A stretch of 55,811 nt of DNA from Prorocentrum cordatum (GCA_963575745.1 CAUYUJ010000130.1:62001-117811); one strand, 5' to 3'; positions 34,956 to 55,010 are shown, counted from the stretch's first letter. Numbers and translations are program-made. Notes: a model not told the origin generated them from the letters alone.

Positions 34956-36077
34956 CAACGTTGCGCAGGAGGCGTGCACACTCGCCGAGCAAAGGGGCCT
35001 CCCTGTGAGGGCCTCGGACCCAGCGCCCCGACCCAGCCCCCAACGCGCACCTCCCGAGGCGCGCAGAGTGGCGTCGCGCAGGATGCGGCAGGGTCGGCGC
35101 CCCCCTGGGCCGGTGCAAGTGGCTGTCCGGCAGGCAGAAGCAGGGGTGGGGAGGGAAACGTCAGGTCGACACTCCAGCTTGTCAGGTCGCGCAATCAAGC
35201 GCTGCGATCGCATCGAGATATGTTCAGAGGAAACAGAACATCCTCAAAAAAAATCCACCGCTTCCCCCTCGAGGGGGTGCCGATGGTGAAACGTGGCAGC
35301 GGTCAAAACGGCCTGGCAAACCCAGGCCGCCTCCGTGCCGCTCCCTCCCCCCCAGTGGACAAGTGCACCAGTTCCCGACCGGCGGAGCCCCAAGGCCCCG
35401 AGTTCCAGGGCTGGCTGCGAGACACCAGCACCGCCAGAGGTCGGCAGCGGCAGTGCACGGAACACCCGTCTGGCGGAACCCCACGGCCCGAGTTCCAGGG
35501 CTGGCTGCGAAGCACCAGCACCGCTGAACAGGACGAAACTGAAAAGGGAAGGAGGCACGAGAAAAGGGCACGGGGCGTGCCGCAAAAGACAGGACAAGTG
35601 CAGCACCGCATGACCCATCAGCTGAGCAACGTGTCCCTTCGGCCCCAGGCCACACACTGGACTATTGCATTTCCGATGGGCGGAGCCCGATCCCGTGCGT
35701 GGGCGGACCTACGCACCTGGGTCAGCCTCCTCTGAAGCTTGCTGCACGGCAGCCGCAGCGGCTAAAAAGGGCAGCACCGAGCACAGAGCCATGCTGCAAA
35801 AGAGTCGGAGCCCGATCCCGTGTGTGAGCGAACCTACACACCTGGTTCAGCTTCCGTTGCTAAAGCGGCAGCTGCACGCGCGCGCACCGAGCGTAGGCCA
35901 TGCCCGCGGTGAGAGACCGCCGAATGCAGCGACTGGCGACCTGACCGTCAGCAACGCTACTGTCCTCCAGGCACCTGGCCCCGCAAGGGACTTGTTGCAT
36001 AGCCGACGGTATCGGGCCCGATCCCGTGCGTGAGCGCGCCTGCGCACATGGTTCAGGCCCGAATTGGGCAAGAGAGT

Positions 36078-39000
36078 CTAGCCGTCCACTCGCCTGCGAA
36101 GGCGTCGCAGGGGCTCAGGGTCGCCGATGCCGCCCTGCCCTGCTGGCTGCAGCCCTCGCTTGAGGCAGCCGAGCACCGCCTTCTGCCTGTCGTTCTTGGG
36201 CGCCCTCGGACACACCTTCGCCGAGCCCGACATCCTGACGCTCTGCGTCCAGTCGCCGCACTTGGCGCAGAAGAGGTGATTGCCTGCACGCCATAGCTCG
36301 TGGGTGACGTGCGGATCGAGCCCCTGCCACGGTGGAAGCGCGGGTGGGGGCGGTGGCAGCGGCTGCGCCACAGGTGCTGCCACCCGTTGCTCGTGAGCTG
36401 CAGCGGCCGCGCCGCCGCTGCCAGACGAAGCCCCATCACCTCCACTGTCACGCTGTTCCCCGTCATATGCTGCTGCTGCTCTCAGCGAGCCGCTGGCCTG
36501 GCTGGAGAGCAAAGCCGCGCTCGCTGCGAGGGGGGCCGCGGCCGCGGCGACCGCGCCCGAGGCCCCCCCTGAACCCGAAAGCCACGAGCCCGAGATCGCC
36601 TCGCCCCGAACAGCGCATTCCTGGCAGGCCCAGAGCGCGTCGCTGCCGACCTCGAGCCATGTCCCGTGTCTGCCGCATGTCCTCCGCGCGCAGTCGCGAA
36701 AGCAGCAGTGGCTCCTCCAGCGCAGCTGGCATCCATGCCAGTCGCGCCGCGCCGCCGCCATGCCTGGCCCTTCGTAGCCCCCCACGGCGGTCAGCTCCGC
36801 GTCGCCCTCCTGCATGGCGGCGCCCAACCAGCGGATTACCTTCCTGACGAGGCGGTCCTGGCGCAGGCTGCGCGCGCGAACCACGTCGTCCGTGGGATGC
36901 ATCTCAGCGCCCTGAATGGCGCGAGCGTCCGCACTGTGGTTGCCCCTGCGCTGCCAGGCGGTGATGCGCTCTGCCCGCGCGTCCGCCGGCGTCGCGTGGG
37001 CCTTCGCCTCGTGGATCGCGACGTTGTCGAGGCCGACGTCCTCGAACGCTCGCCGCAAGCGAACCCATAGTTCTCGATGGGGCCGCTGCCACTGGAGGCA
37101 CCATGCCTTGCCCGCTGCGAAGCCATCCACTAGCAGTTGGCAGTCGGTGAAGATCCTGACTGGCGGGGGGCAGTCCTGTAGCCCCTCGATCACAGCTGCC
37201 AGCTCCGCGGCCCCCGACTCTTGTGGGCGTGGCCAAGGGGGCGGGCCGAAGATGCTGAGGGCTTCCGCGTCGCTGCTCATGACTGCGGCAGCCCAGCCAC
37301 CCCTTGCGGAGACCAGGCCGGGGTCCAGGGCGCTGCCGTCGGGGGGGGTGTCCCCGACCAGTGGGTGGCGCACGAGATCGGCGCGCCCTTCCTTGCGCGC
37401 CGGGCGCTCCTCCGTGGGCAGAGGGATTTAACGCCTATGCTCGGGCGCCAGGGCCCTCGACCAAACCGGGTCCTCCGTCGCGCCGGCGCTGGCCATGTCG
37501 GCGAGGGTCCCGAAGTGAATGTCGTCGGGCGCCCTCCTGTCGTCTGCGTCGTCATTGGCCACCCACTCTGCGCGGCCGAGCGTGGTGGCAGGGCGCTGCC
37601 GCGCCAGGTGCCGCGCCGTGCCGCGTGCAATGCACCCGCGATGGCACTGGGGCGACGACGCCAGCGGCCGCTCCTCTGCGAAGCGGCGCGCCACTGGCCA
37701 TAGACAGCCGACCAGCGCGTTCTTGGCCGAGCTCATTTGCCTGGCCGTTTGCGGACTCATCCGCCTGCGGTGCAGGGTGCGCCTGATGCTGGACAGGGGC
37801 CCCCTGCGGCCAGGTGCTCCAAGCCAGGATGCCTGGCTGCATCCCTCCACAGCAGCCGCCCATGGCTGGCGCCGATGTGCTTGGAGAGGGTCGGTGCGCC
37901 TAAGGCCTTCGCGTCGACGGGCTGCTTCAGGTCGTTGAGGAAGAAGCCCGGTCGCAGAGCATGCCGCCCCGGGCGGTGGCATGCCAGCACGCATGCCGAT
38001 GCAGGGCTCCTGCCAGAGAGTGCCTCAGGCCCTTCAGCATCCTTCCCCGTCAATGCCCCTGCGAACGCGCTCCCGCGTGCACGCGAGTCCGCGCGGTCCG
38101 AGTTGAACTGTGCCGCTTTGGCCCACGCAACGATGGGCAGCGTCGCGTGGTCGACGAGCGGGTCGCTGGCCAGGCGCTTGCTTAGGAGGAAGCTGAGGCT
38201 GAGGCTCTTGCCAGGCCCTCTGCCGTGGTGAACGACATTGACCTGCCTCCGCCACTTGGTGAGCTGCGGCGACGGCCAGCCCACCGCGCTCAGGCCGTGT
38301 CTGGTGGCAGGCCTGAGCCCCGTGTTGGCCGCGCGCGCTGCCGCTGGTGTCTCCTGGGGGCGGATGGCGTGCAGCCTCTGCAGCTGCGCTGCCGCCTTGG
38401 TGTGGCGCGTCTCGAGCACCGCGAAGGCCTGGCCGTCCAGGCAGTAGTCCACTCCCAGGTGCTTGACCGAGTCGGCGATGGGAAAGGCGGTGCCCCCTAT
38501 CTGCTTGGCCACCAGTGAAACCAGCTAAGGCGAGCTCGCAAGCAACCCGCTCTTCGACTCCGACACCTTGCAGCCCAGCGCCACGAGCTGCGCCGCCACG
38601 GCCTTGGTCGCCTGGGCGACGCACGCCGCGACCTGCGCCATGGGGCCGTGGCACCTAACGCAGCAGTCGTCGAACATAATGGCTAGGGTGACCCGAGGCT
38701 CCAGCGCCCGCCATAGGCGCGCGGTCTCATCGGCCAGCACCAGCAGGCCGCACTTGAGGAGCCGCCCTGCGTGCGAGCAACCAGCGAGGAGGCCCGCGTC
38801 CAGCAGGTATGGGTCGGAGGCGCTGCCGTCTAGCATAAAGCGCCGCGCTCCCGCATACAATGTCAGCGCCATGCCCAGCAGCCCCCTCGGGTAGCCCGCC
38901 ATGATGCTGCGGTCCTGGATGATCGCCAGGTCTACCAGCTCGTAGGCGTTCCACAGGTCGATGGGTGATGCTGCAGCTCCCTCGCTTCGTGCTTGCGATG

Positions 39001-42000
39001 CCTCGGCCCGGAGCGCTTGACGCCAGACGGCCTCTTCGACCGCGCGCCCGCGGCCGCCCCAGAATGCGCCTGCTACGCCTGGGTCGATCTGGGAGTCCCA
39101 GTGCCGCGCGTCTGGCTGACGGACGCGACTCCAAAGGCGCGGCAGCCCGCCCAGCAGGCCTATGGGCCGAAAGCCCCATTGAGGCTTGGGCAGCACCACC
39201 ACGAGAGAGCCGGTGATGACGTCGGGCCAGCCGCCCGGCCCCCCGCACCGCATCCCGAAATCGATGGTGACCCCCGGGAGGGCGTCGCTGATGTCCGCTG
39301 CCTTTCTGGGGTTTAGGCGATCGCTGCCAACGCCAGTGCTGCGCCTGAACGCATTGGCGGCCTGACGCACCCGATCGGCCGAGTGCCTGGGCAGAGCCTC
39401 CGCCTCGGTGGGCGGTCGCCGCGGGTGAAAGCGATCGCTGCCCTGTCGGACCCGCCAGACCTCGGCGGTCCACTGTTGCGCCGCGACCTTCGCTCGGTCG
39501 GGGCCGTGCGCTGGGGCGCCGCGCAGCTCGTCGTCGGGTGCCCAGCCGCGCGGTCCACGCCTGCAGGCGTGGAGGCCCCCTGCGCCTGTTGCCCTGGATG
39601 TGCGGATCCACTCCTTGAGCCCCTGGCAGCGAATGGCGGCAAAAGCGGCGCCCTCCGCCTCAGCCGCGGCCCTGGCCTCGGCAGCCCATTCGGCCAGGGG
39701 CAGCAGGTCGGGGCAATCGGCCGCCAGGGCTACGCGTGCGGCCCGCTGTGCCCCCGGCGGGAGGCCCTCCATGGTCGGGGGCTTCGAGGCTGCCGCAACT
39801 GCGCGCGCACCTCTGCCGCCCGCGCTGCCGCCGCCGTTGCTGCCGTCGCAGCCGTCGTCGCTGGAATCCGACGGAAGGTCCCCGTGATACCGCATGAAAT
39901 CCTTGACGGACTGAATGTGGCTGTAGTGCTCGTCGTCCGCTACTGCCCACGCGTCAGGGCGGTTGGACTCTAGGGCGATCGCGCTGCGGTGGTGCTCGTC
40001 CCTCACAGGCTGCGCGACTGACCAGCTCTGCTCGCGCAGCTCCACGGCCCTGCTCCAGCGTGCGGCCGCTCGGTCCGTGAACGGCTGAGCCGTGCAGGTG
40101 CCTATCTCGCGCTCGCTGCCAGCGCTGCCGCTGCCTGTGGTTGCCGCTGTCGAAGCCGATGCTGCATGCCCCGCGCTGGGGGCTGCTGGGTGCCCTCCAC
40201 CTGCTGCCGCCAGTGCGGCGAAGGATCCTGGAGGGTGCTGGATCGGGATCGCGCTGGCCCCCTCCGCGGCAGCTGCCCCCAGCGCGGCCACTGATCCTCC
40301 GCCGCTGGGGCCCCCCGCGGTGTTCGCGTCGGCGGCGCCTTCGCCCTCGCACTGGCAGAGGCGTGCAAGTTTGTGGTGCGTGCACAGCTCCATCCACTCG
40401 GCCCTGTCGCGCTCCGGGCCGGGAGCCTGCAAGTGCGGGGGCCAGCCTCGCGCGATGCGCTGGAGGGTCCTCCGAACTCCTTGCGCGCCGAGCTCGATGG
40501 CGCTCCACTCGCCGAGAGCCGCCACTCCCTCTAGAGCGACGCAGGGGATAGGGGGCTGTGGCGTTGCCCGAGGGGCGCCATTCAACTTGGGCTGTGACGT
40601 CGCCCGCAGGCATCCACCCCCGGTGCGGTTCCCAATTCGTCGGGGGCCTCGTCGAAACATCGAAGGCGAAGGTGGCGCCGAGGGGCCTGCTGTAGTCGCC
40701 GCGCTCATCTAATCACCGCTTCGATTCCACGTAGCTGTCGACAGTTAGGTGGCACTCATCCTCACCATCCTCTGGATGTAGTTGGCCGAGCTGTCGGAGA
40801 ATACGAGCCAGCGCACGCCTGCCAGGGCCCCCGCGCCGCCACGCAGAAGAGCAGATCTCTCTCGCGGTGCACATGCGGTTGTCGAACTCCTACGCCAGGC
40901 CCGTGGCGACGTGCGTCGGCAAGCCCAGCATGCGGAAGACGTAGGGCGCGCACTTCTCCATGCGCTCGGCCTCGTCGTTGTAGTGGTTGGGGTTGCTAGG
41001 GTTTGAAACCCAGCTGCGCGCTCGGCGCCCCGCCGCGCGCTTGTAGCGCCTGGTGGCCCTGGCCTGCATGCGCTCGGCCTTGCGGTGTTCCGGGTCCAGC
41101 TCAAGGCGCCCTTCAACCCCGTCATCGGCCTCAGCGCCGCCTGTGAAAAGCGTCACCTGTGTGAAGTAGTCCGATAGAAGTCGGCGTCGTCAGGGTCGAT
41201 CTGGTGCGCCCAGGCGAGCTCCTCCTCTACGCCCTCGCAGAGCCCCTGGTGGGCTTCCCCCGTGCCCTCCAAAGTGCCGCTCATGTCAATCTGCTCCGAA
41301 CAGCGTTGTGCTCCCAGTGCATCCCCAGCATGGGCCCGAAAGGGCGGGCCTCCCTGGCTCCTGGTCCGCCGTACTTTGGATGATTTTCCGACCTAAAATT
41401 GTGTCGGAAATCGACGCCAAAGGAGCCTCAAGGGCGGAAATCGACGCTCAAAGGGGCCTCAAAAGTAGGGCGGAAATTTCCGCCCTATTTTCGAAATCGC
41501 CCAAAGTAGGGCGGATCAGGAGTCAGGGCTTGGGGAACGCCGTCGGCCCCTTGACCCTGAGCGACTGGCCCATGTCACCGTAGCAGGTGAGGCTGAGCTG
41601 CACTGCCATATGTGGGCGGCAAGGGTTGGCGTACTCCCGGGCGGTCATGTCCAGGCGCTTGCAGGCGAGGATTCGGTCGAACCTATCGGAGCTGACAATG
41701 AACCAGTCTAGCTCCGAGGGCTCCTTGGTCGGGGAGTGCTGGCAGGCCCCCACGCCCGTGTCAACGACGTGACCGCCGACTTTGCAGAGCCAATGCCCCG
41801 CGCGTTGAAGGAAACGCTCGGGCTCCACGTCCCAGTCGCCTGCGATGACCCACGGCTTCCCTGTGCGCCTGAGGAGGGGGCCGACCTGCTGCAGTACGGA
41901 CTGGCTGGTCTCGCCGACGTCGTCGTTGTCCAGGTAAACGGAGCCCAGCAAGAACCCGCCATATACCGCTCCATTGACATAGGCTACCGTGGCCCTTCCG

Positions 42001-42311
42001 TCAGAGACATGGCAGCTGGCCTTGCAGCCCTGATCGCGTGGGCCGCACATGCCGCGGGTGGAGCGCACTGCGACTCCAGTGCCACCGCTCACCGCGCGCT
42101 GCTGCGATGCCACCGCGGAACTCACGCCTGGGGTGAGCACCGCGCTCCAGCCGACCTGCCTGCTCACAACTCGGTAGCCGTTGAGGTGATGTTCCTGGAA
42201 GCAGATCGCGTCTCCCACGTGCGCGTCGACGACCACCTGCTGCTGAGGATCCAGCTGCTCGCCAAGGGTGGTCGCGAAGGGGCCCCAGCCGCTGCCGTTG
42301 AGGCTGACCAC
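36078..42311 (-). pseudogene. LINE-B ORF2 (APE, RT, RNase H, C-terminal Cys/His motif), disrupted
   Basis: APE: SLNGSGW, FQEHH, GSVYL, IAGDW, ELDWF, RPH. RT: GFRPIGL, IDLWNAYE, LLAGCSHA, MFDD, HLGVD. RNase H: DGSA, AELAA, IFTDC, KAH, GNHSADARA. C-terminal HELW..LFCAKCG. Confidence 0.9.
41352..41528. mobile_element. MITE family B inserted in LINE-B ORF2, 2-bp TSD (CT)
   Basis: Near-identical to 18341-18517. Removing the element and one CT restores the minus-strand frame AFPK-ARPFGPM. Confidence 0.9.
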
Positions 42312-42383
42312 CGTGAATATGGGCTTGCTACCCGCGCTTCCCCCTCCACCCGGGCCCCGCCCAGCGGAGGTTCTGGGGGAGCT

Positions 42384-43316
42384 TCAGCTCACGAGGCCCG
42401 CGCCTCTGGGCGGCCTGGGCTGCGGGGTCCCCTCGTCGAGCCCCGTCGTCGCCGCTGCCAGCGCTTGCTGCCGCGCTGCCCTCTTCTGTGGGGGCCTCGA
42501 CCTCTTCCTCCAGATGTCCAAGATGTTGCTGAAGTCGGCCTCCTCGAGCTCCTCGTCGCCGCTGTCGCGTGCTGCTGCTGCGCCCGTTGCTGCGACGCTG
42601 TGAGCCTGCCGACGAAGCTGGGAGACTTGCTTCTCCCAGTGCTGGGCGTAACCTGTGTCGAGCATGCCAGAGGCCTGGTCCAAAGCTTCCAAGAAAGCTG
42701 TAGCGCGTTCGCCCTCGCTGAGTGGGGCTGCTGGGGACCGAGGCGCTGCTGCTGTGGCGCCCGCCACCACCACTCCTTCTCCGAGTTGCTCTTCGCGCTC
42801 CTGTCTGTGCCTGGCCAAGAGGTCATCGATGAGCGCCTGGAGCTCCTTCTCCGCTGCCTTGCTCTGCTCGTGCTTGCCCTCGAACTCGAGCTTCTGCGCC
42901 TCGAGGCCCGTGATCTCCCTCGCGGTGTCCGCGATCTTCCTGTCGAGCGCCTCCGAGGTGCTCTGCTGGTTCGGCTGCTTGCGCTCGAGCTCGCTGAGCT
43001 GCACGGACGTGGGCCTCTCCACGGCGAGCTTGTGCTCCAGCTGCTGCGCCTCTTGCCGCTTGCGCGCCAGTATTTCAGCTGCGCCCTCCACTCCTTCGAG
43101 CTTCTTGATGTCGCTCCGCAACTTCCCGAGCCGCCGTGCCCTCTCGTCCTTCGGTGCGGCGTGGGTTGCTGCTGTTCGTGGGACTTCACCTCCGCGAATC
43201 AACCTGACGGATGTGCCCAGGTAGTCCCAGATCTTGCCGAAACAGCATTCCTGAGACGGCCACACCGCGAATAAACGTGACCGCTGCGTCCCGACACTCC
43301 GGAGTCGAGCCAGCAC
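42384..43316 (-). pseudogene. LINE-B ORF1: decayed N-terminal Cys motif and long coiled coil
   Basis: Lies directly upstream of the APE domain; heptad-rich E/K/Q/L sequence. Confidence 0.7.
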
Positions 43317-43356
43317 ACCGTGTCTGGGATTCTCATGGTATGAGTCCTTGAAGCGG

Positions 43357-43700
43357 TTACAGACGTTGAATTAAACCGAATATGCGCGGCGCTAAGGCTA
43401 GAACTACATTGCGCAAAAAAAAGGAACCGCCCTCCATTCTTGAAGCTGCTGCGAATTTATTGGACGAAGGCGCGCGGCGCTGAGGCGAGAGGGACATGTT
43501 GAGCACCATCCGCCCTCCATCACTGAGGCTGTTGTAGGCATTTGAGACGGATGTGCGCGGCGTCGAGGCAGGAGCCACATGCTGAAAACCAGCTGGCCTC
43601 CATCCGCGAAGCTGCTGCACGTACGTACATGGTGAGGGAGTCGCAGGCGAAAAACCTGGCCCGCCCCACTTTCTCTCCTAGCGATGCGACAGGGAGGAGC
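43357..43700 (+). repeat. Dispersed repeat family C, third copy
   Basis: TACATGGTGAGGGAGTCGCAGGCGAAAAACCTGGCCCGCCCCAC..GCGACAGGGAGG resembles 22071-22140. Confidence 0.6.
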
Positions 43701-43750
43701 TAGCCAGAAGAAAGACGGATGGACCAGGGTGAAGCTGCGGAGGAGAAGGG

Positions 43751-43809
<59 letters not shown>

Positions 43810-43811
43810 CT

Positions 43812-43855
<44 letters not shown>

Positions 43856-44423
43856 GATGATGATGATGTGATGAATGAATGATGATTATGAGAGAGGAGG
43901 AGGAGGAGGAGGGGAGAGGAGGAAGAGGATTATGATGAGGAGGAGGATGAAGGAGGAGGAGGAGCGGGCGGGATGAGAGGAAGAGGAGGGAGAAAAGAAA
44001 GAGGAGGAGGACAGGATGAGGATGAGGCTAAGGAGGAGGAGGAGGAGGAGGAGGAGAAGGAGGAGGTTGAGGAGGCGGAGGATGAGGAGGAGGAGTAGGG
44101 TGGGATGAGGTGGATGCAGTTGCTGAGCGCTTCAATCCGCCGAGCAGATGGGGAGGGGGGGTGCTGGCTCCGTCCCTTCCTTCAGGATGGAGAAGATCAT
44201 GAGGACGATGCTGATAGGGGATCATCCGTACAATTGTTATGTTCGAGTTATTACCACCATCATCTTTTCGGGTGGGGGCGTTGGTCAGGAGATGTGCCCA
44301 GGAGGCTTCAGACCTTGGGAGTGCCTTGTCTGATGAGGGCGGCGGTGATATCCATGGCCAGTCCACGATTGGAGTTCCACGGTCTTCTGGAGTCTGGATT
44401 CCTTATCCAGTGGTTCCTGATTC

Positions 44424-44436
44424 AATGCCCTCACCG
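44424..44436 (+). repeat. Target-site motif AATGCCCTCACCG, copy 1 (others at 45589-45601 and 52868-52880; 12-bp core at 53033-53044)
   Basis: Exact direct repeats at each unit junction. Confidence 0.9.
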
Positions 44437-44437
44437 T

Positions 44438-44459
44438 TCCGTAGCCATTTTGGCTCAAG
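44438..44459 (+). other. Complete dinoflagellate spliced-leader sequence (DinoSL), genomic retrocopy
   Basis: TCCGTAGCCATTTTGGCTCAAG, 22/22 to DCCGTAGCCATTTTGGCTCAAG. Followed by a possible partial relic CCGGTCTCAAG. Confidence 0.97.
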
Positions 44460-44530
44460 CCGGTCTCAAGCCCCTGGTTGCCATCTGCCTCCGCTCATGG
44501 CCGGTCCGGGCGCAGCAGCTGCTTGAGGAG

Positions 44531-45520
44531 ATGGTGACGGGAGGGGACCCCCGCAGGTCCCCACGCTCACGCGCGGAGCGCAGCGAGGCTGCGCGGCGGG
44601 CGCGCTCGGCGGCGGACGCCGCCGTGCGGCATGCCCGAGCGCGGGTGGAGGAGCTCGTGGAGCGGCTGGCCCTCGCCGAGAGGACGCTGGAGGCCTTCAC
44701 GGGCGATGCTGAGCTGGCCGACAGGCTCGCCGCGGTGGTGCCTGCACTGGGCGCGCTGGTCAACGGCGAGCAGCCCTCCTGGCTGGCGCGGCTCAGGAGG
44801 AACGTCGCGCTGCACGCCAAGGCGGGCGCCATCAAGGGGCGCATCGCAGGGGCGGCGGCGAACGAGCTCAGGAAGGCGCAGAAGCAGGAGCGCCTCGGGA
44901 AGCCCCCCTTCCTCAACCCCTCGGCGACGGAGGAGGTGCACGAGGACAAGGCGGGGGCCGCGCAGAAGCAGGGGCATGCGGCTGAGCAGGTGCAGAGGAT
45001 GCTGCACGAGAGAGAGCTGCCCCAGGCAGCGCCCGAGGACGTCCTGGGCGCGAACTGGCTGGCGCCAGGCTGCTGGCAGCCAGGCGACCCCGAGCTGGAG
45101 GCGCGGGCCTTCGGAGAGGGATTCGCATGTGGCTGGCGGCTGGCGGCGCGGCGCGCGGAGGCCTCGGAGGGTCCCCCTGCGGCTGAGGCCACGCAGGTGG
45201 TGACCATCTGGACTTGCTGTCTGGAGGCGGGGACGCGGCCCGAGATGCACGGCATCGGGATCGAGCTGCGGCGCCTCCCCAAGGACAACCAGGCCCCGCC
45301 CGAGCCCACGGCGGCGAGCGACCACTCGATAGAGTACGGCGTCCGCCTGGGCCCCACGCAGCGGCAGCAGGGCATCGACGGCGATGGCGAAATGCTGCCG
45401 CTAGCGGCCGAAGGCGGGAGCGGCGGGCCGCAGCTCGAGGGCCCCCAGGGCGCTGCGGCCGCCCGCGCCCGCGACCTCGCCGAGCTCTACGCCGCCTTCG
45501 TGGAGGAGATCGGGCGCTGA
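44531..45520 (+). CDS. Hypothetical 329-aa protein with a helical/coiled-coil N-terminal half (RLRRNVALH motif); cargo of the non-autonomous unit
   Basis: Intact ORF starting 72 nt after the SL, strong GC3 bias, stop ~65 nt before poly(A). No RT or endonuclease motifs. Confidence 0.7.
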   Translation: MVTGGDPRRSPRSRAERSEAARRARSAADAAVRHARARVEELVERLALAERTLEAFTGDAELADRLAAVVPALGALVNGEQPSWLARLRRNVALHAKAGAIKGRIAGAAANELRKAQKQERLGKPPFLNPSATEEVHEDKAGAAQKQGHAAEQVQRMLHERELPQAAPEDVLGANWLAPGCWQPGDPELEARAFGEGFACGWRLAARRAEASEGPPAAEATQVVTIWTCCLEAGTRPEMHGIGIELRRLPKDNQAPPEPTAASDHSIEYGVRLGPTQRQQGIDGDGEMLPLAAEGGSGGPQLEGPQGAAAARARDLAELYAAFVEEIGR

Positions 45521-45602
45521 GCGGTGGCGGGGCCCTAGAATGCCTGCATGAAACCGCCGTGCTCGCGCGGCGCCTACACAGATAAAAAAATGCCCTCACC
45601 GT

Positions 45603-45624
45603 TCCGTAGCCATTTTGGCTCAAG
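45603..45624 (+). other. Complete DinoSL at the 5' end of LINE-C
   Basis: TCCGTAGCCATTTTGGCTCAAG, exact match. Confidence 0.97.
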
Positions 45625-45845
45625 GCAATGAACCGTCCCGACGACCGCGAGTCTTTCGGGGCGAATTCTGAGCGCGAGGGAGGTTCCGCTTTGAGGCCAC
45701 CTTCCTTTCCAACTTGCGAGTGCTGCCACCGCAGCACCCTCCAGGACCTGCGGGTCACGCCTTCTTCCGAGTCGGTGGGCCCGCCCCCGTCGACTCCTGC
45801 CTGCCGCGCGCCCGCGGCTGAGCAGCGCGCCCGCCCGCTCCAGCG

Positions 45846-47033
45846 ATGGGGCCCAAGGCCGAGCCTGGCTTCGTCGTGTGCACGGGCTGCCGCTGCCGCT
45901 GGAACTTCCGCAAGAACGCGGAGTGCTGGCAGTGTGGGATTGGGCTGGAGCTGGCGCCCTCGAAGCCTTCGCCCCGCGTCGGGGTCTGGGCGGATGGCGG
46001 CGGCGGCGGCCCCCCGCCCGCGCGTCGTGGAGGCGGCGGCGGAGGCTCACCGAGGGATGGCGCCAAAGGCGGCAAGGGCGGCAAAGGCCGAGGTGCAGCC
46101 TCCCGTGGCGGCGGAGGCGGTGCAGCCTCCCGTGGCGTCGGCGTCGGAGGCGCGGGCGGCCGTGGTGGAGGCGCCTTCCCGAAGGCCCCTTGGTCGGCCC
46201 TGCCCGAGAGCGAGCTCGACGCGCTCCTCGCCTGCGGGGACCCCGCCATCGCGGCCAGGCTGCAGGAGGCGGTCCGCGACGCGCGGTGCTTCGTCGCGCC
46301 CGCGGCCGCCCCAGCGCCAAAGCCACTCGAGCAGCGGCTGCAGTCTGCCACGGCGAAGCGGATCAACCTCCAGCGCCAGCTCGACGAGGCGGCAGATGCG
46401 CTCGTGGCGGCGGAGGACCACCTCGCCCAGTGCCGCGGCTGGCGCGACGAGGCTGCGGTCAACCTCACGGAGGCCAAGGAGGAGGAGAACGCCCTCCTGC
46501 GCCAGCGGGCCCAGGCGGCTGGCGTTGTGGGCGCGCAGCCCGACGGAGCGAAGCAGCTCACCTTCAACTTCGACGCGGAGTCGTTCGACAACTTCGCGGA
46601 GCTGGAGGAGGAGGCGCAGGCCACCCTCAGGCGCCTCTGCGAGGAAGGGCTCCAGATCATGCAGGGCGCGCAGGCTACGTTCGAGCGCAACTGCCAGGAG
46701 CACCAGCAGCGCATCAAGCGCCAGATCGAGGAGGAGGTGGCCAAGAAGCGCAAGCGCTCCGAGGAGGGGCCTGCAGCAGCCGAGGCCGCTGGCACCCCCG
46801 AGCAGGGTGCTGCCGCCCCGCCTCAACCTTCAGGACAGGCGGCCGCCCCTGCTGCCGCCGCCGCCCCAGCCGCAGGCGCTGCGCCAGGAGCTGGACCCCC
46901 CCCAGCGGCCGCTGTGGAGAGCCGAGCGGCAGATGAGGCGGCCCGCCAGCGCGCAGCCGACCAGAAGGCCGCTGCGGCGGCCCCTCCACCTGCTGCCGGC
47001 GCTGCTGCTGGCAGTGGCCAGACCTGCGGGTAG
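45846..47033 (+). CDS. LINE-C ORF1, 395 aa: C4 zinc finger, RGG/Gly-rich tract, coiled coil, putative NLS
   Basis: CTGCRCRWNFRKNAECWQC (RanBP2-like spacing), RGGGG repeats, heptad region and KKRKR. Confidence 0.85.
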   Translation: MGPKAEPGFVVCTGCRCRWNFRKNAECWQCGIGLELAPSKPSPRVGVWADGGGGGPPPARRGGGGGGSPRDGAKGGKGGKGRGAASRGGGGGAASRGVGVGGAGGRGGGAFPKAPWSALPESELDALLACGDPAIAARLQEAVRDARCFVAPAAAPAPKPLEQRLQSATAKRINLQRQLDEAADALVAAEDHLAQCRGWRDEAAVNLTEAKEEENALLRQRAQAAGVVGAQPDGAKQLTFNFDAESFDNFAELEEEAQATLRRLCEEGLQIMQGAQATFERNCQEHQQRIKRQIEEEVAKKRKRSEEGPAAAEAAGTPEQGAAAPPQPSGQAAAPAAAAAPAAGAAPGAGPPPAAAVESRAADEAARQRAADQKAAAAAPPPAAGAAAGSGQTCG

Positions 47034-50000
47034 CGCCCTGCTGCCGGGAGGCGGCCCCGACGGCGCGGCGCCGCCCGCCCCAGTCGGGGCTGTGGAGGCA
47101 GAGGCGGCGAAGCCCAGCCGCCCCGAGGCGGCGGCGCCATCGAGAGGCGGCCTGCACGCCTACCTGGCGGCCAATGAGCAGGCCGATGCCTGGGAAGGGC
47201 TTCCCTTCAGAGTGCCGCTACTGCGCCAGGACCGGCGCTTTGATGACGCGCGCCACGACACCAAGTTCGAGGCACTCAGCAGCAGTCCAGAGCCAAGCGC
47301 TGCGGCGGACTTGGCTGGGCCCGACCGAAGGACTGGCAGTCCTCAGCCCAGCCAGGGGCCCATAAGGAATAGTGGGTACCCATTTCAAGTTGACCAGGCT
47401 ACGGGCGAGGGCGTGAGGCCCCCCGAGGTTCGGAGACCCAAGGCGGCGAGCAGCCGCCCGCCTGGCGGCCGCTCGGCCGCCGCGGCAGTCGTGAAGCCTG
47501 CGGCACAGCCTCAGCCTGGTCGACCGCAGGTCAAGCCCCTCCAGCTGGCCAAGCTGATCAGGCCAGTGGGAGCGAAGCGAGCCAGCTTCGTCACACTGAA
47601 CGGCTCGACCTGGACAGAGACGCAGGTGGAGCTGGAGCGGATCCAGGACGAAGGAGGAGGCGACGACGTCATCCTGGTGCAGGAGACACGCTTCACCTCC
47701 AGCCAGAAGGCGACTGACGCCTGCAGCTGGGCCAGGCGCAACTGTTTCAGCGCTGCCTTCGGCAGCGTCCACAGCACGGGGCAGGCGGCCCAGGCGGTCT
47801 CGGCGGGCGTCGGGGTGCTGACGTCAAAGTCTAGGGGCGTGGCGGCTATCGACCACGACTGGCACCGGCACAGTGCCCGCATCCTGGCCCGACGGGTGGC
47901 CTTCGGCGATCTCGCGGTTACGGTGGTCAGCGCCTACCTCGAGCACACGACCAGGATGGCAGGCTACAACCTGGAGCTGCTGTCGGACCTCCAGGAGTTC
48001 CTGTTCAGCCTCCACGAGCCGTTCATAGTGGGGGCCGACACTGGAATATGGACCCCAGCGTGCTCGCCGCCTCTTGGTGGCCACGGGCTGTGGGCGGGGT
48101 GGTAGTCGCGCCCACGACTTTCACCTGCGGCGACCAGATCAACGACTTCTTCGTGATCTCCACGGCGCTCGCCGGCCTCAGCCCGAAGGTGGAGGTCATC
48201 AAGCCCACAACACTGAACCCGCACGCACCAGTGCGGCTCACGTTCAGCGAGCTGGGCAGCAACGCCATGGTCTGGGTCCTCAAGACCCCCAGGGTCTTCG
48301 AGGTGGGCTCGGAGGTCTCGGCCGAGCAGCGTGAGATATCCCTGCAGGCGGCGACCCAGATCAGCTGGACAGCCCCCATCACCGACAGAGACGGCACGCC
48401 CGATGCGGCGATCAAGGAGTTCTTCGAGGCCGCGGAGCTCCACCTGATCGACCAGTTCGGCATCTACGTGGGAGAGAGGTACCAGGGCAGGGCCAAAGGT
48501 CCCCGCACCGTCAAGAAGAAGCTGGCGGACCTGCAGCGCACGGAGGCTGTCAGAAAGCTCAGCCCCATCACCAAGTGCTGGCTCTGCCTCGGGAGGATCG
48601 CCAGGCAGCTCAGGGCGGCTGCTGCGGTCTGCTCACCCCCTGTGGGGCACGTCGGCTACATCAAGCACCTGGTGCAGGTGGCAAAGAGCTTGGGGCCCAA
48701 GTTCGAGCAGGCGGGTTGCACCATGTTCGAAGGCTCGAAGCTTGACTCGCTGATAGACGTGATCCAGGAGCCCACCGAGCAAGGGCAGGCCTTCCTGCAG
48801 ATGATCGAGAGCACGACGGAGAGGCACCGCAAAGAAGACGCCAAGGCGGCCAGGCTGCGCTGGAAGGACTTCGTGGACGAGGCCTTGGCGAAGGGGGCAA
48901 AGGGCGCCCACGCAGTCATAAAGGACCGTGACCAGGTGCTGGACTCGGTGACCGCGCACTGCCCCGACAGCCTGCCGCTCCCAGTTGTTGGCCAGCAAGC
49001 CCTGGACCAGATCCTCATTGAGTGGAAGGCCCTTTGGAAAGGTGCCGACGGGGAGTGCAGGTCCAGACCAGCCGACTGGATCTGCTCCATGGAGCTGCCC
49101 CCTATCACGGCGGACGACATCCTCGAGGCGGCGAAATCGTTCCCGAAGCAGACCGCTCTGGGCTGGGATGCGTTCCACCCGCGGCTGGTCCTCTCCCTGG
49201 GCAGGCCCTTCGCCGAGAGGATGGCAGAGGTGCTCACGGCTTGGGAGCAGCAGCCACAGCCCACAGCCTTCTTCACCACGGTGATCGTCTTCCTGGGGAA
49301 GCCCGACGGAGGCCGCCGCCCGATCGGCATCATGAGCATGTGGGCGCGTATCTGGAGCAGGGTGCGCCGCCGCTACTGCGCCAAGTGGGAGGCGGACCAC
49401 CCGCTCCCCGAGGTCTGGGGCAAGGACGCGAACACCTGCTGTGACAGGGCGGCCTACCTCCACAACCTGGGGCTCGCGCTCGCCCGCCAGCTTGGCTTCG
49501 AGGCAGCCTCCGTCTACTTCGACATCAGCAAGTTCTACGAGCGGATCGACCATGACCTTCTGCGCCAGGCCGCGGAGGGCAACGGCTTCAGCGTCGGTCT
49601 GCTCAGGGCCCTCTGCGTACTCTACGCTGGGCCGCGCCGCGCCTCGGCGGACGCCGCCATCAGCGAGCCCATTGAGGTCAGCGGCACCATCATCGCGGGC
49701 TGCTCCTGCGCGACGACGCTGGCCAGGCTCATGCTGCACGGCCTCCTGCTCCAGGCCAGGGCGCTGCTGCCAGTCGGCAGGGTCGTCAACGTCATCGACG
49801 ACATAGCAGGCCACGGCATCGGGTCGGCAGCGACGCTCAGCCGAACGATCGCGAGCTTCGTCAGCGGCGTGGTCGAGATGCTGGCGGACAGGCGGCTGCC
49901 CATCAACTGGAAGAAGACGAAGGTCCTGGCCTCCTCGGCGGGCCTCCAGCGCCGCCTGCAGCGGGAACCCGACTGGCGGCTCGCGGCCGAGGCCTTTGTC

Positions 50001-52616
50001 TCGGGCCACCGTGACCTCGGCGTCGACGCCACGGCCGGCAGCCACAGGCGAGTCGCGACTCAGGTCGGTAGAGAGCTCGCGGCGCTGCGGCAGGCCAGCA
50101 GGCTCCACAAGATCTTCGGGCCTGGCCTTCGGCAGGCAAGGGTCTTGCGCGCGGGCCCCTCAGCCAAAGCCCTATGGGGTTCGGCCTGCAACGGCATCCC
50201 GCCTGGCCGCACGAGAGCCCTGAGGCTGGCAGCGGCCAAGGCGACGGGCAAACTGGCTCCTGGGGCTGCGCTGGGCTTCCTGCTGCAGTGCTCGCCGCGA
50301 GGCTGGCGCCGGGACCCGCTAGTGGTGGCCACGGGCTTGGCCGTCCTAGCGTACACCAATGTCCGCTGGGCAGGCCAGGCCTCCGCGGCGGCGATCCAGG
50401 CCTGCATAGCGGAGAGCGCCAGGATCGTGAGGCTCCAGCGCCCTTGGGCTGCCGTCAGGGACCCGATCTCGGCCTTGGTGCTCACGCTGCAGGTCATCGG
50501 CTGGGGCCTCAGCGACGACGGCGACTCCCTGCAGGACGAGTTCGGCTGCTGCTACTCCGTCCTTCGGTACTCCCCCGCCTTCCTTGCGGAGAAGGCCAAG
50601 GAGGCGGCCAGGAAGGCGGCAGCCTTCCAGGAGTACGACGCCAGGCCTTATACCCTGTGGCCGTGGCAGCTGCCGCCAAACTGGCGGGCCATCAACCAGC
50701 TCCTCGGCGCCGCGCCCACGGAGACGTGGTCCAGCCACCACTGTGGCTGCCTGCGCAGGCTGGCGTCTCTGTCACTATGGCCGCAGGCCAGGCTGGCCAA
50801 GCGTGGCACCGACATCGACGACCGCTGCCTGCTCTGCGGCGAGGAGAGCGGGACTCTGGCCCACCGCCACCACAGATGCCCTGCCTGGGAGGGCTGGCGG
50901 CGAGATCGCAGGCCCGCCGACTTGAAGCGAGCTGCCGAGCTGGTGAGCACAATGGGCCACCGCTACGAGGAGCTCTTCTGCCAGGGCCTCTTCGTTGACG
51001 CCCAGTACCTGGTGCAGAGGCCGCGCTGGGGCCCTCGCTGGGAGCGCCGCTCGCGTGGCTGGGACGAGGGCGCGCTCGTGGTGCCCGCGGGCTCCCTCGT
51101 CTTCACGGACGGCTCCTGCGTCAACAACGGCTTCCCGATGGTCAGGAGCGCGGGCTGGGCAGTGGTGGTTCTCGCGCCCGACGGCGAGTGGTTGGCGCAG
51201 GCGTGGGGGGCAGTGCCGCCTGCCCTTTTGCCCAGCCAGACGGCGAGGGCAGGCGAGGACTACGCGGCGGTGGTCGCCCTCACCGACATCGTCGGCCACT
51301 ACCACCTCATGATCGATTGCCTCGGCACGGTCGGGGCTTGCAAGGACGTGAAGAGGGCGGCGGCCCCGACGGCCCAGTTTGCCCACCTCTGGGCGAGGGC
51401 CGGCGACGCCGCCGAGGGGGTGCACGTGAAGCACATCCCCGCCCACCGTTCTCGGGCGGCAGTCGAGCAGGGCGTACTCTCGGAGGTGGAGCTCTACGGC
51501 AACCGCCTCGCGGACCAGCTCGCGAAGGCGGGCGCGGCGCTGCGCGCCATCGCCGACGAGGAGGCCCTCCTGCTCCAGGGCTGCCTGGCCCGCGCCCGTG
51601 ACGCGGCGCGGTACGCCGCCGAGTTCGAGGTCCAGGCTACGGAGTCGGGCTTGCGCGACTCCTGGCCCATCAGTTCGCTGGAGCTCGTCGACCTCACCCC
51701 CTACATGGCGGCGGAGCTCGACGGCGAGACCGACTTCCTGCACGCCGCCGCGGCGGAGCCCGCCCCTGGGACAGGTGGATTCAGCCCACCGACGTCGCAG
51801 TCCCAGGGGCGCGGCGAGCTCGAGGTGATGCACGACGCGGAGGTGCGCGGGGCTGCCGCTTCAGCGACTGGCTTCTCGAAGGAGCCCGACGCCGAGCCTG
51901 GCGATGACGTCGGCGTAGCGCAGCCCTCGGCGGCTGACGGCGGCCCCCGCCTCGCCACGGCGGCGGCCCTGGCAGCGGCGGCGGCAGCGGGCGCCTCCAG
52001 CTCGCGGCCTTCGCCCGCGAGGCGCCGCCCCGCCTCGGCCGAGTCGCCCGCGGAGGTGCTGCGCCGTGTAGCCCAGCGCAGGGCGCAGGAGCATCCGAGG
52101 CGCCGCGAGGCCTCGGCGCCCGCGCCCAGCCCGCGCCTGGCGGCGGCGGAGGCGACGAGCAGCGGCCCAGCCCCTGCGGAGGCGGCAGATGCGACCCGTC
52201 CAGCGGGATGGAGGGTCAACGGCCACCTCCTCATGGAGTCGCGCGTCGAGGGCGACGTTTCCGAGCCCTTCCTGGTCTGCGCGGCCTGCTGGATGTACTG
52301 CCGCCTCCCCAGGTACGCGCACCGCGGCCTGGGCAAGCCGTGCGGGGCCAGCGCGGCGGCGGGGCAGCCCAAAAGCAAGAAGGGATCCAGAGCCCAGGCG
52401 CGGTCGGACTTCGCACGTGGGATCCTGCCAGCGTCGAAGGAGCCGATCGCGCCGCTGGCCTCGCCAACGGCAAGCACGCGCCTGCGCTGGGCGGCGGCGC
52501 TCCAGGCCTGGCAGGGCCACGGCTCGGAGGTGCAGGCGACCGAGGCGGCGCCCGCGCCAGCGCTGCGGCAGCCTGCTGCAGCCCCGCCCCACGCCGCCTG
52601 CGGCTGGCGCTGGTAG
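46933..52616 (+). pseudogene. LINE-C ORF2 polyprotein (APE, RT, RNase H, Cys/His motifs) with one 2-bp frameshift at 48040-48041
   Basis: APE: FVTLNG, ILVQET, SAGVG, VSAYL, GAD[ac]WN, INDFF, NPH. RT: GRRPIG, FDISKFYE, IIAGCSCA, VIDD, DLGVD. Zinc: CLLC..HRHHRC. RNase H: FTDGS, GED, IDC, IPAH, GNRLADQLAK. The start codon is uncertain. Confidence 0.92.
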
Positions 52617-53095
52617 CCTGATGGCTGCGCCGCCGAGCGCCACGGCGCCGCGGCGCCTGGCAGCGGCGGCCCCGCGGGCGGAGGCAGCCGAGCCGCGGCG
52701 GATCCGCCCAGGGCTCGAGGGCGCCCTCCGAGCCCACGGCTTCGCGGACGCTGCGGCGGCCCGCGAACGCGGGCGAGCCGCGAGGGCGGCGGCCGTCCCG
52801 CCTGCTTGAATTTGTTTGCAAGAAACCGTGGACCTTTGTCCGCGCCCACAGAGTTAAAAAATAAAAAAATGCCCTCACCGCTGTCGCTCTGGATCAGGCC
52901 GTGCTGAGGTCAAGCACACGGGAATCTGCTTCTTCTCTTTCTTTATCATTAAGATGTTGATTCTTCCTCTTTTCGTTCGTTGTCGTCGTGTGTGCGCAAT
53001 GAAGTCTGCTTTCGCAGACCAGCGGCGATAACATGCCCTCACCGCATTGGGGCGGAGGAAAGGGAGGAGGAGGCCGGAGGAGAGGAGGAGGAGGA

Positions 53096-55010
53096 GGAGT
53101 GGAGTGGAGTGGAGTGGAGTGGACTCCGCTGCGCAGCAGGTTCGGGTCTTAGGAAGGCCTGGACAAACGAGCATTCGAACGCCGAGCTTGTTCAGCTCGG
53201 CTCAGAACTTTGGGATGCAACCCCCTAGCAATTCTGTCAAGGTACTCTTGCCCCGTGGCGGACTTCCTCTTACTACAAGGGCCTTTAAGAGATCGCAGAA
53301 CCTTATCCGCGGTGCCCCCACACTCGGTGCAGAACCAAACCTGAAGGGTCGGGTGAACATTCAGGGTATGCGTAGTGTGGGCCCAACCCCCCGCGATGTG
53401 GACTCGCGACCCCTTTAACGGCGAAAACAGGACCCCATCGACATTGTACAGCCTAGGACATTCAGATTCGACGAATTCCTGGGTGGTGGCGAGGGTCGCA
53501 GAACCAAAACAAGAGAGGCAACGTCGGCCGCAATCGGCCAGACGGTGCCTGGAAACGAGGGCAGCAACAGTGGCAGCAGCGGGATGCGGAGGAGGAGGAG
53601 GGGCGGGGGGAGGCGGGGCCTCAGAGGGGCTCCCAGGGCCTCGGGCGGCGTCCCTTTCCATTCTCTCAGTCTCCTGGCTGGCCGCAATGCTGTCCAGCGT
53701 GGCTCGGAGGAGCCTCATGCGGACGAGGTACGCCCTCCGCTCGGCCAGCAGGATGGGTTGGCGGACCTCGGCGGGCAGCCTGGCTCTGGCCGCTGCACAG
53801 CCCGCGAACTCGTCGGCGAGCAGGTTGCCTATGACGAGGTACCTGTTCACCTTCTGGGCAGCGACATCCTGGGCCGTGCTGTGGGACGGCGTCCAGAGCA
53901 CCGTCACCTCGGCGTGGCGGCGTGAGCTCATCAGGTCCCCGATGAGCTTCCATAGGTCGGCGTCCTCACCTGCTGGGTTCGTGTAGGCTTGGGAGTACCA
54001 GCCCGCCGCCACATATTCACAGTCCGTCACGTAGGTGAGAAACCTAGTGGTGCACCAGAGGGCGAGGTACAGGGAGTAGAGCTCTCCCCTCGCCACGACT
54101 TGGCGTGGGCCACCCAGCTGGCCGAATACTGCACCATGTAGGTTGATCTCGGGCAGTAGGCTGGCTACGCACACTATGGCGACTCCAATCCTCATGAAAT
54201 CGCTGATGCTCGCATCTGGCCCTCCACTGGCGTCCCCGAAGATCTCGACTGGAGACTCAGCACTCCCCGCCCCGAAGATCCCTTCGGACAACTCGTTGAT
54301 GCCCGTGAACTCAAGGACCGTGTCCTTCGGTGGGGGCGGGGTCTGGGTCCACTGGGTCGGTAGCAGTCCACGTAGCCAGAAGCACTCGGTGGCGTCCGTC
54401 TGAGCCATCGCAGCTGGAACCAACGACTCTGAGCGTTCATATGGCGCGGCCTGCACGTTCTTGCTACACTGCCAGAATCTGTGTTTGGCCGTCTCTGGTG
54501 CCTCTCGGCAGCGGTCACACAAGTTGCTGCCCTTATAGCCCTTCAATTCATCATATCGCCTCTGTCGCGTCCAGTATCCACCTGTGGCAATATTGATCAA
54601 CAGCTCAGTGAGACGCACACCGTGTGGGAGTTGCCCGACTTGTTTGATCAGCACCCGAAATGACCGATTGTCAACTCCCTGCTCGACTCCACCTCCGCAA
54701 TAGTGCTTGGCAGCCGCGGTCCATACCACCTGGGCCGCCGACTGACGTACATCCTTCAACAGCTCACGGTGTGTGTGTCGAGAAACTTATTGCCCGTGTA
54801 TATGGTGTCTGGAAATTGCCATTCCTCCGACCCCGTGGGTGTAGTGTACGACCACGTGTCCACATCCTCAGGGTTCCACTTGATGCGGAGGAGGGTGAGG
54901 ATTACTGCGGATACTGGGCCACGAACTGCACGCACCTGATGTTGGGGATCCAACTGGGATAGGTGGTCTCGGACATGATGCCATACTTGTCGTACTCGCT
55001 GGCGCAAACA
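53096..55010 (-). mobile_element. 5'-truncated LINE (LINE-D) with RNase H and an (ACTCC)n tail, inserted in a (TCC)n tract
   Basis: (GGAGT)5 at 53096-53120 and GGA repeats on both flanks. VRGPVSAVILTL is homologous to LINE-C VRDPISALVLTL. Confidence 0.88.
53149..55010 (-). pseudogene. LINE-D ORF2 C-terminal part (CCHC-like finger, RNase H, two Cys motifs), frameshift near 54760
   Basis: CDRC..ETAKHRFWQC, IFGDASG, RGEL, VTDC, DLW, WTPSH, GNLLADEFA and WFCTECG. Confidence 0.88.

Follow-up and report, generated by a model that had tools for sequence, protein, structure and literature searches.

A putative head-to-tail stack of spliced-leader-bearing retroelements, a LINE and an unrelated passenger, at a repeated 12-bp motif in Prorocentrum cordatum

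Several long interspersed nuclear elements (LINEs) that carry an APE-type endonuclease are target specific: R1 inserts into 28S ribosomal DNA, TRAS and SART into telomeric repeats, and the Tx1 group into small RNA genes or other repeats. NeSL-1 of nematodes and SLACS, CZAR and CRE of trypanosomatids use a restriction-like endonuclease and insert inside spliced leader (SL) RNA genes, and the SL at their 5' side is target DNA. LINEs can also share their 3' end with a short interspersed nuclear element as partner, the "stringent" form of recognition, as do UnaL2 and UnaSINE1 of the eel. Here we describe a locus within a 55,811-nt stretch of DNA from the dinoflagellate Prorocentrum cordatum (GCA_963575745.1 CAUYUJ010000130.1:62001-117811; the whole stretch is called the window below), in which a nearly intact LINE, LINE-C, and a shorter non-autonomous unit with an unrelated body, unit 1, both begin with a complete dinoflagellate spliced leader (DinoSL) and abut copies of the same 12-bp motif. 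Judged from its sequence, the region is apparently a head-to-tail stack of retrotransposed RNAs. We consider it probable, though by no means secure, that SL-trans-spliced RNAs were copied through target-primed reverse transcription (TPRT) into a preferred motif, which each insertion duplicates.

With R1, TRAS/SART and the Tx1 group, LINE-C shares an APE and a reverse transcriptase (RT), what appears to be one short target, a regenerating duplication of ~12-14 bp, a single orientation and a target that is likely multicopy. Unlike theirs, the putative target cannot be recognised as an RNA gene or a microsatellite; the 5' end is an SL, and the site is also occupied by a passenger whose body is unrelated. 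As with NeSL-1, SLACS, CZAR and CRE, a non-LTR element (one free of long terminal repeats, LTRs) is physically linked to an SL and apparently site-specific, but LINE-C is APE-type, the SL is complete and part of the RNA that was copied, and the apparent target is a different 12-mer, which no SL intron follows. The autonomous LINE and short unit resemble UnaL2/UnaSINE1 in that they share a 3' module that contains a conserved hairpin and precedes a short, repeat-like tail; the passenger here, however, is not derived from tRNA or 5S RNA, is SL-capped and has a coding-like open reading frame (ORF) of 329 codons, and its module is supported by two sequences.

Dinoflagellate retrogenes tagged with DinoSL were described by Slamovits and Keeling (2008) and by Song et al. 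(2017, 2018), as represented in the open-access portions of PMC6050394 and PMC12014239, and more than one-fifth of dinoflagellate genes are reported to carry relic spliced leaders (open-access portions of PMC11453091 and PMC6050394). Our locus resembles these retrogenes in that a retro-copied RNA begins with a DinoSL encoded in the DNA, and in signs of recycling, seen in a contig with two SLs. It differs from them in what was copied, which here is the LINE and, beside it, a passenger. The review PMC6050394 calls the element that mediates DinoSL retroposition unknown and favours LTR elements. Since the tail, the duplication and the shared 3' module are all visible here, the machinery can be named. 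The open-access text searched (PMC8045281, PMC7245778, PMC12014239, PMC3229502, PMC10666404, PMC11453091, PMC5890265, PMC6050394, PMC6616646) describes no SL-led or site-specific dinoflagellate LINE, and to that extent it agrees with the first-pass annotation of the window, whose author knew of no described system like this one.

Stack layout and spliced-leader junctions

The elements of the stack lie on one strand, as follows.

44290..44424, + strand: upstream flank X, moderately repeated, ending at motif copy 1
44425..44436, + strand: motif copy 1, ATGCCCTCACCG with an A before it; candidate 5' target-site duplication of unit 1
44437..44437, + strand: extra T between motif and SL of unit 1, variable among copies
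44438..44459, + strand: full 22-nt DinoSL, TCCGTAGCCATTTTGGCTCAAG, at the 5' end of unit 1 (sequence, SL scan)
44460..45589, + strand: body of unit 1, with a short 5' leader, the ORF at 44531-45520, and a 3' untranslated region (UTR) with the module at 45546-45581 and the tail ATAAAAAA(A)
45590..45601, + strand: motif copy 2, candidate 3' duplication of unit 1 and simultaneously 5' duplication of the LINE
45602..45624, + strand: extra T and full DinoSL at the 5' end of the LINE (sequence, SL scan, repeat scan)
52818..52868, + strand: 3' module of the LINE (GCAAGAAAC, 7-bp hairpin, CCCACAGAG) and tail TTAAAAAATAAAAAA(A) (alignment with unit 1, covariance model)
52869..52880, + strand: motif copy 3, candidate 3' duplication of the LINE, with non-SL sequence after it
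52881..53032, + strand: 152-bp segment with no SL, A tail or 3' module; depth like that of the flank
53033..53044, + strand: motif copy 4, with no A tail before it and no SL after it

Unit 1 thus spans 44437-45589 (1.15 kb), and unit 2, a full-length LINE of 7.27 kb with ORF1 and ORF2, spans 45602-52868. The first-pass annotation had proposed two units with unrelated bodies and identical junctions. Reading of positions 44000-53600, together with the motif and SL scans, reproduces its order base for base: flank, motif, T, SL, unit 1, A tail, motif, T, SL, LINE, A tail, motif, 152 bp, motif. The shared junctions appear in the repeat scan as a 36-nt identical repeat at 44424 and 45589 (AATGCCCTCACCGTTCCGTAGCCATTTTGGCTCAAG, that is, A-motif-T-SL) and a 20-nt identical repeat at 45582 and 52861 (ATAAAAAAATGCCCTCACCG, that is, ATAAAAAAA-TGCCCTCACCG), and self-BLAST finds the two bodies unrelated outside the junctions and 3' ends. 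The poly(A) of the same annotation stands in part. A-rich tails are present, and the tail ATAAAAAAA followed by the motif forms the same 3' end on both units, but the tails are short and the same, AT followed by A7, and do not resemble free poly(A). Their identity makes them look templated or made by slippage.

The 12-mer ATGCCCTCACCG occurs in four exact copies in the window, at 44425, 45590, 52869 and 53033, and the single further match, at 9399, has 1 mismatch. At ≤1 mismatch, 0.59 occurrences are expected in the window, and the five observed were reached in 0 of 100 shuffles. Upstream of flank X, a degenerate form of the motif is not meaningfully present, the window as a whole holding 60 matches at ≤3 mismatches as against 80.7 expected. 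Both units lie between identical direct repeats of 12-13 bp. Copies 1 and 4 have no A tail before them, and copies 3 and 4 have no SL after them; the motif is therefore bound to neither end of an element, as expected of a target. Copy 4 may be a site that is still free, or it may be the outer duplication left by an insertion of greater age. The stack as a whole sits between (GAT)n and (GGA)n-type microsatellite tracts (43700-44100 and 53050-53130), and similar GGA-rich tracts are dispersed throughout the window.

Repeated junctions of this kind could come from an assembly artefact or a segmental duplication, given that the region is rich in repeats and that 36-bp repeats can mislead assemblers. 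We regard such an origin as extremely improbable: the bodies between the junctions are unrelated and of different length (1.15 versus 7.27 kb), pieces of the stack and its junction are found in four sequencing runs from at least three studies, and the periodicities, 1165 and 7279 bp, equal the unit length plus 12 in each case.

The 21-nt DinoSL core is found as an exact match at 44439 and 45604 and nowhere else in the window, with 0 expected. In each case, it is preceded by a T, which satisfies the D of the 22-nt leader, such that each unit begins precisely with a complete DinoSL encoded in the DNA. No intron-like GT follows either leader; the bodies begin CC... and GC.... As in DinoSL-tagged retrocopies, then, the leader stands directly at the 5' end of intron-less, tailed copies. 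That two unrelated RNAs both start exactly with the SL suggests that they were trans-spliced as host mRNAs are. The T at 44437, which varies among copies, fits the addition of a non-templated base to the cDNA end. Just after the SL of unit 1 (44460-44470) stands CCGGTCTCAAG, which resembles the last SL bases, GGCTCAAG, and may be a worn, truncated SL relic from an earlier round of retroposition.

These same observations bear on whether motif and SL together make up the 5' portion of an SL RNA gene, or else an extended leader of 35 nt. The 36-nt junction is identical in both units, and transcripts of the Fugacium kawagutii SL gene are reported, in the open-access text of PMC6616646, with sequence upstream of the canonical SL. 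Against this, neither SL is followed by a GT intron, neither an SL RNA nor any other RNA family is matched, motifs 3 and 4 stand without an SL, the spacing of motif and SL varies, and the endonuclease is of the APE type. We consider an SL-gene origin very improbable. The presence of an APE domain, SLs that are not followed by GT, motifs 3 and 4 without an SL and the lack of an RNA family at the site likewise sustain the earlier proposal that this arrangement differs from that of the restriction-like-endonuclease LINEs in SL genes.

LINE-C and its passenger

The internal features of LINE-C, with the Pfam scores of the window copy, are as follows.

45625..45845, + strand: 5' UTR, 221 nt (sequence)
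45846..47033, + strand: ORF1, 395 aa, with an N-terminal CxxC...CxxC zinc-finger-like motif, a Gly/Arg-rich stretch and a predicted helical middle
47590..52616, + strand: ORF2, with APE, RT, zinc knuckle, RNase H and a Cys-rich C-terminal part
~47590-48320, + strand: APE endonuclease of ORF2 (Exo_endo_phos, E 0.0019, 18.4 bits, below the 24.5 cut-off)
49299-49928, + strand: RT of ORF2 (RVT_1, E 0.0026, 17.9 bits, below the 29.6 cut-off)
50751-50885, + strand: zinc knuckle of ORF2 (zf-RVT, E 0.005)
51096-51536, + strand: RNase H of ORF2 (RNase_H, E 5.8e-06, 27.0 bits, above the 25.8 cut-off)

In the ORF2 of the window copy, RNase_H alone exceeds its Pfam cut-off, and the other assignments draw on homologues. 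An intact 1604-aa homologue, P0005, aligns with ORF2 at 40% identity across 95% of the query, and its APE is 38% identical to that of the window copy over 153 aa. The Pfam cut-off for APE is exceeded by P0005 (28.6 bits) and P0012 (36.2 bits), and that for RT by P0005, P0011 and P0012 (32.6-35.9 bits). The acidic residues of RNase H are invariant across 12 aligned homologues. The order of the domains, with the APE before the RT, the A-rich tail TTAAAAAATAAAAAAA with a duplication of 12-13 bp, and the absence of long terminal repeats in a repeat scan of the window are those of an APE-type LINE. Pfam reports no restriction-like endonuclease family for the LINE, the N-terminus of ORF2 being occupied by the APE. 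Unit 2 is an APE-type non-LTR retrotransposon with RNase H, and the domains, the P0005 alignment and the homologue scores bear out its annotation as an APE-RT-RNase H LINE. RNase H is found in the I, Tad1, LOA, R1 and Ingi groups and in some L1 elements; as in those groups, it lies C-terminal to the RT in LINE-C. The family is large, with 3169 cluster representatives at E≤1e-3 and 183 at ≤1e-30. A sequence search of the PDB with P0005 gave 0 matches.

The APE of the window copy is broken by 2 extra bases near 48038, the one frameshift in this LINE, and the alignment with P0005 stops exactly there, after ...PFIVGAD. Contigs of the sequencing runs X2 and X3 (described below) are without these two bases; the insertion is therefore private to the window copy, and intact copies exist. 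ORF2 has no ATG nearby and is in the +1 frame relative to ORF1. Near this change of frame, at 46801-46892, we observe a cluster of differences that is common to several runs. At the other end of ORF2, contigs of X1, X3 and X11 are without one base at 52587, and ORF2 would consequently end later in those copies than in the window copy.

Over 323 aa, ORF1 shares 88% identity with the N-terminus of P0006, a Prorocentrum cordatum gene model; this places the window in that species or a close relative, and its G+C content of ~60% fits such an origin. P0006 and a second such model, P0009, fuse LINE-C ORF1 and pieces of ORF2 to host genes, the host parts being an At4g15545-like C-terminal domain protein and a DnaJ-domain protein. 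Either these models are mis-annotated or LINE-C is co-transcribed and spliced with neighbouring host genes.

The ORF of unit 1 (44531-45520, 329 aa) matches no Pfam family, and its read-through form of 471 aa has no relative among the proteins of 259-825 aa that were searched. Its G+C content by codon position (0.785/0.555/0.90, compared with 0.66/0.51/0.89 for ORF2) is coding-like. Unit 1 may be a dedicated partner of the LINE or a retro-copied host mRNA.

What unit 1 and the LINE do share, apart from the junctions, is a 36-nt module directly before the tails, in which 24 of 36 positions are identical without gaps. The consensus consists of GCAWGAAAC, a 7-bp stem with a 4-nt loop, and CCYACASAG. 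The local alignment of the two 3' ends, in which the module has the same offset in each unit, scores higher than 967 of 1000 shuffles (p 0.033), and a covariance model built on the module finds these two sites only in the window at E < 0.1, the next best having an E of 0.36. The hairpin is placed alike in the two units; its 7 pairs are all conserved, 3 of them with changes on both sides. The shuffle control of this pairing is weak with two sequences, as 44 of 500 shuffles do equally well. The stem-loops of the first-pass annotation therefore survive in altered form: as folds they are no better than shuffles (z −0.68 and −0.10; the hairpins taken alone, at +0.82, −0.68, −0.10 and −2.18, are not evidence in themselves), but a shared module with a 7-bp hairpin and 4-nt loop does lie there. 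Shared 3' sequence and structure is what is found between LINEs and their partners. The module fits a passenger that has borrowed the 3' recognition signal of the LINE, and the LINE RT probably recognises it.

Copies, junctions and flanks in other sequencing runs

Parts of the window are present in 15 public runs from 12 studies, and we aligned to it, at ≥90% identity, the Logan contigs of four runs that come from at least three studies. These contigs are short, paths through repeats may be wrong in them, and the depths given below are summed values, which do not measure copy number. Each of the four runs has contigs that cover the body of unit 1 at 95-99% identity. In X1, the summed depth is 121.7 at the motif-T-SL junction, 24-40 over the body of unit 1, 44-200 over the LINE and 5-7 in the downstream flank. 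At 45636, in the 5' UTR of the LINE, it reaches 467.8 (X1), 250.6 (X2) and 27.5 (X3), which is above the LINE interior and extends over the first ~150 nt.

Several contigs depart from the window at the junctions. Two X1 contigs (depth 13.6 of the 121.7) are without one T at 44437. In one X3 contig, at least 43 nt of flank X and the motif are joined directly to the SL and 5' UTR of the LINE, with one T fewer, which would be either an allele free of unit 1 or an independent insertion. An X1 contig runs from a LINE tail (A6) through GGCCCTCGCTGTAG into an SL and, on its sequence, looks to be a second stack at a related, non-identical motif. In another X3 contig the SL is followed by a third body, and in yet another a different body is joined to the last ~50 nt of unit 1. 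Finally, an X1 contig has an SL, 27 nt and then a second near-complete SL before unit 1 sequence, with motif-like bases ahead of the older SL; this double-SL contig appears to be a recycled copy. Outside these runs, the motif+SL pattern had 0 matches in viral, metagenome and prokaryote-genome contigs, and a locus search guided by ORF2 returned 74 metagenome, 9 viral and 36 genome pattern matches with no relative among them. The putative site specificity is seen in one stack, with 2-3 insertions at one 12-mer, and in a few short contigs; the one unoccupied copy seen is motif 4.

These junctions speak to the possibility that LINE-C has no real specificity, and that unit 1 landed at a chance site, after which the LINE nicked the A tail of unit 1 and the second cut fell at the same base. 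APE LINEs with L1-type endonucleases commonly insert into existing A tails, T-rich on the bottom strand, and the ambiguous A's at the border of tail and motif permit such an event here. It needs a coincident second-strand cut, however, and leaves motif 4 unexplained, a chance recurrence of the 12-mer 152 bp away having a probability of ~1e-5. In addition, the X3 contig places the LINE right after flank X and the motif with no A tail upstream, the X1 contig has a variant motif between another LINE tail and an SL, and the junction depth is high. Together, these points make an insertion without specificity improbable.

Flank X is itself repeated. Its summed depth is 40-74 (X1, 44318-44411), as against 5-7 in the downstream flank, and contigs diverge upstream at 44324 (16 in X1, 5 in X2 and 3 in X3) and at 44394 (5 in X1 and 3 in X3). 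By this depth it is possibly a multicopy host target. It has no Rfam or Pfam identity and no second copy in the window, and a protein search with the translated flank X-motif-SL stretch found no match among lengths of 61-196 aa. Rfam gave nothing at gathering scores in the window and, around both ends of the stack, noise at E ≥ 0.45 only. The 152-bp segment shows no significant similarity to flank X, to unit 1 or to the LINE 3' ends by local alignment. By eye, a hairpin lies ~14 nt before the motif in both flank X and the 152-bp segment, which would have made them older units; neither the alignment nor the model supports this, and we have rejected it.

The behaviour of these two segments is central to the alternative that the 12-mer is no target at all but the fixed 3' terminus of the element RNAs, lying beyond an internal A-rich tract. 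Arrays would then arise by template jumps of the RT from the SL to the 3' end of the next RNA, or by priming on a resident terminal tag. Every segment of the stack, including flank X and the 152-bp segment, does end in the 12-mer; flank X is repeated and ends at the motif; the AT+A7 tails are identical in both units, as if templated; and the extra bases at the SL junctions (T, none or TAG) are also typical of template jumps. However, flank X and the 152-bp segment are without the shared module: their local alignments are no better than those of shuffles (p 0.49-1.0, with the value of 0.49 in a comparison of flank X), and the covariance model has no match in either at E≤10, which argues against the motif as the mere end of every neighbouring unit. 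Moreover, SL-capped, A-tailed RNAs are ordinary mRNA-like templates that end in their tail, and the depth of the motif-SL junction exceeds that of flank X or unit 1, which is easier to understand if insertions carry the motif at their 5' side. We therefore take a fixed terminus to be unlikely.

Proposed mechanism and neighbouring observations

Our favoured reading, copying of SL-trans-spliced RNAs by TPRT into a preferred and regenerated motif, can be put as a series of steps. The LINE endonuclease would nick the bottom strand just left of (A)ATGCCCTCACCG, i.e. (A)ATGCCC, and the exposed T-ended primer would pair with the A-rich tail of the RNA. Synthesis on the RNA template would run up to SL base 1, with 0-3 bases added at the 5' junction (0, 1 or 3 are seen); such bases are typical of end-joining after cDNA synthesis. 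A cut in the top strand 12-13 bp downstream would then duplicate the motif. Because an intact site is left on both sides of each insertion, further insertions can stack, in one orientation. For a single SL to persist over repeated cycles, the splice acceptor would have to be the last AG of the encoded SL, or transcription would have to start at SL base 1, an idea that the open-access text of PMC6050394 raises for retrogenes. What the sequences show directly is the anatomy of the stack, the domains, the identical junctions, the common 3' module, and further copies with variant junctions in other data sets; we infer the TPRT steps, the sequence preference of the endonuclease, the trans-splicing and this requirement on acceptor or start.

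A number of observations weigh against this account. Trans-splicing of the element RNAs is deduced from DNA alone, and splicing at an internal AG should turn an encoded SL into an SL plus a relic, which is not present here. A single complete stack is seen. The support from other runs comes entirely from short Logan contigs that are possibly chimeric across the 36-bp repeat, although the junction with one T fewer in the X3 contig supplies its own k-mers, counter to a chimera. The last 240 nt of the LINE (52629-52868) have low depths in the DNA runs (11.4, 0 and 1.0), and the 3' ends of other copies may differ from this one. A templated 3' end accounts for the identical AT+A7 tails better than free poly(A) does. 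The 152-bp segment, with no SL, tail or module, is unexplained, and the repeated flank X ends exactly at the motif, such that it could be a host repeat that bears the target or the motif could be part of X.

The locus nevertheless brings the hallmarks of TPRT together at one place, namely an A-rich tail, a 12-13-bp duplication and a full-length 5' end, on an SL-bearing LINE and on its passenger, and this makes the proposition that a LINE is responsible directly testable. It points to a site-preferring LINE as a likely engine of gene retro-copying in dinoflagellates, and the regenerated target shows a route to same-strand arrays. A retroelement free of a promoter is also suggested, in which trans-splicing defines and caps the 5' end, in a genome that seemingly regulates little at transcription. 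A fuller version, which we put forward tentatively and rate as rather doubtful, is that LINE-C is promoter-less and site-preferring and resides inside host transcription units, that its read-through RNA is SL-capped at the last AG of its own leader, and that it copies any SL-capped, suitably tailed RNA into the regenerated 12-bp site. If that version is true, LINE-C would be the engine of DinoSL retrogenes and a builder of one-directional head-to-tail arrays.

Two further observations concern LINEs and leaders elsewhere. The window contains a second, unrelated LINE on the minus strand at 36000-43400, which has neither an SL nor an A tail. Its APE lies at 41526-42383 (Pfam E 7.9e-06) and its RT, 27% identical to LINE-C, at 38363-39616; between the two there is a short insert (~41350-41530) with repeated ...GATTTCCGCCCT... 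units, and the 3' end bears diverged tandem repeats of ~120 nt (35700-36060).

Finally, in IMG/VR the exact 21-nt DinoSL core occurs at 119 stretches (L001-L119; for example, L012:2960-3021, L024 and L065), nearly all of which are AT-rich contigs of giant-virus metagenome-assembled genomes. These loci contain neither the 12-mer motif nor a homologue of the LINE proteins, and no paper on such a pattern of leader before gene surfaced in the literature search. Each copy stands directly before a different gene start, some loci have tandem SL repeats, and the copies are preceded by a conserved AT-rich block of ~45 nt (TTGATAAATCAATTTTTT... or TTGAAA...). Either giant viruses of dinoflagellates encode the leader of their host, or AT-rich contigs of dinoflagellate type have been binned as viral.

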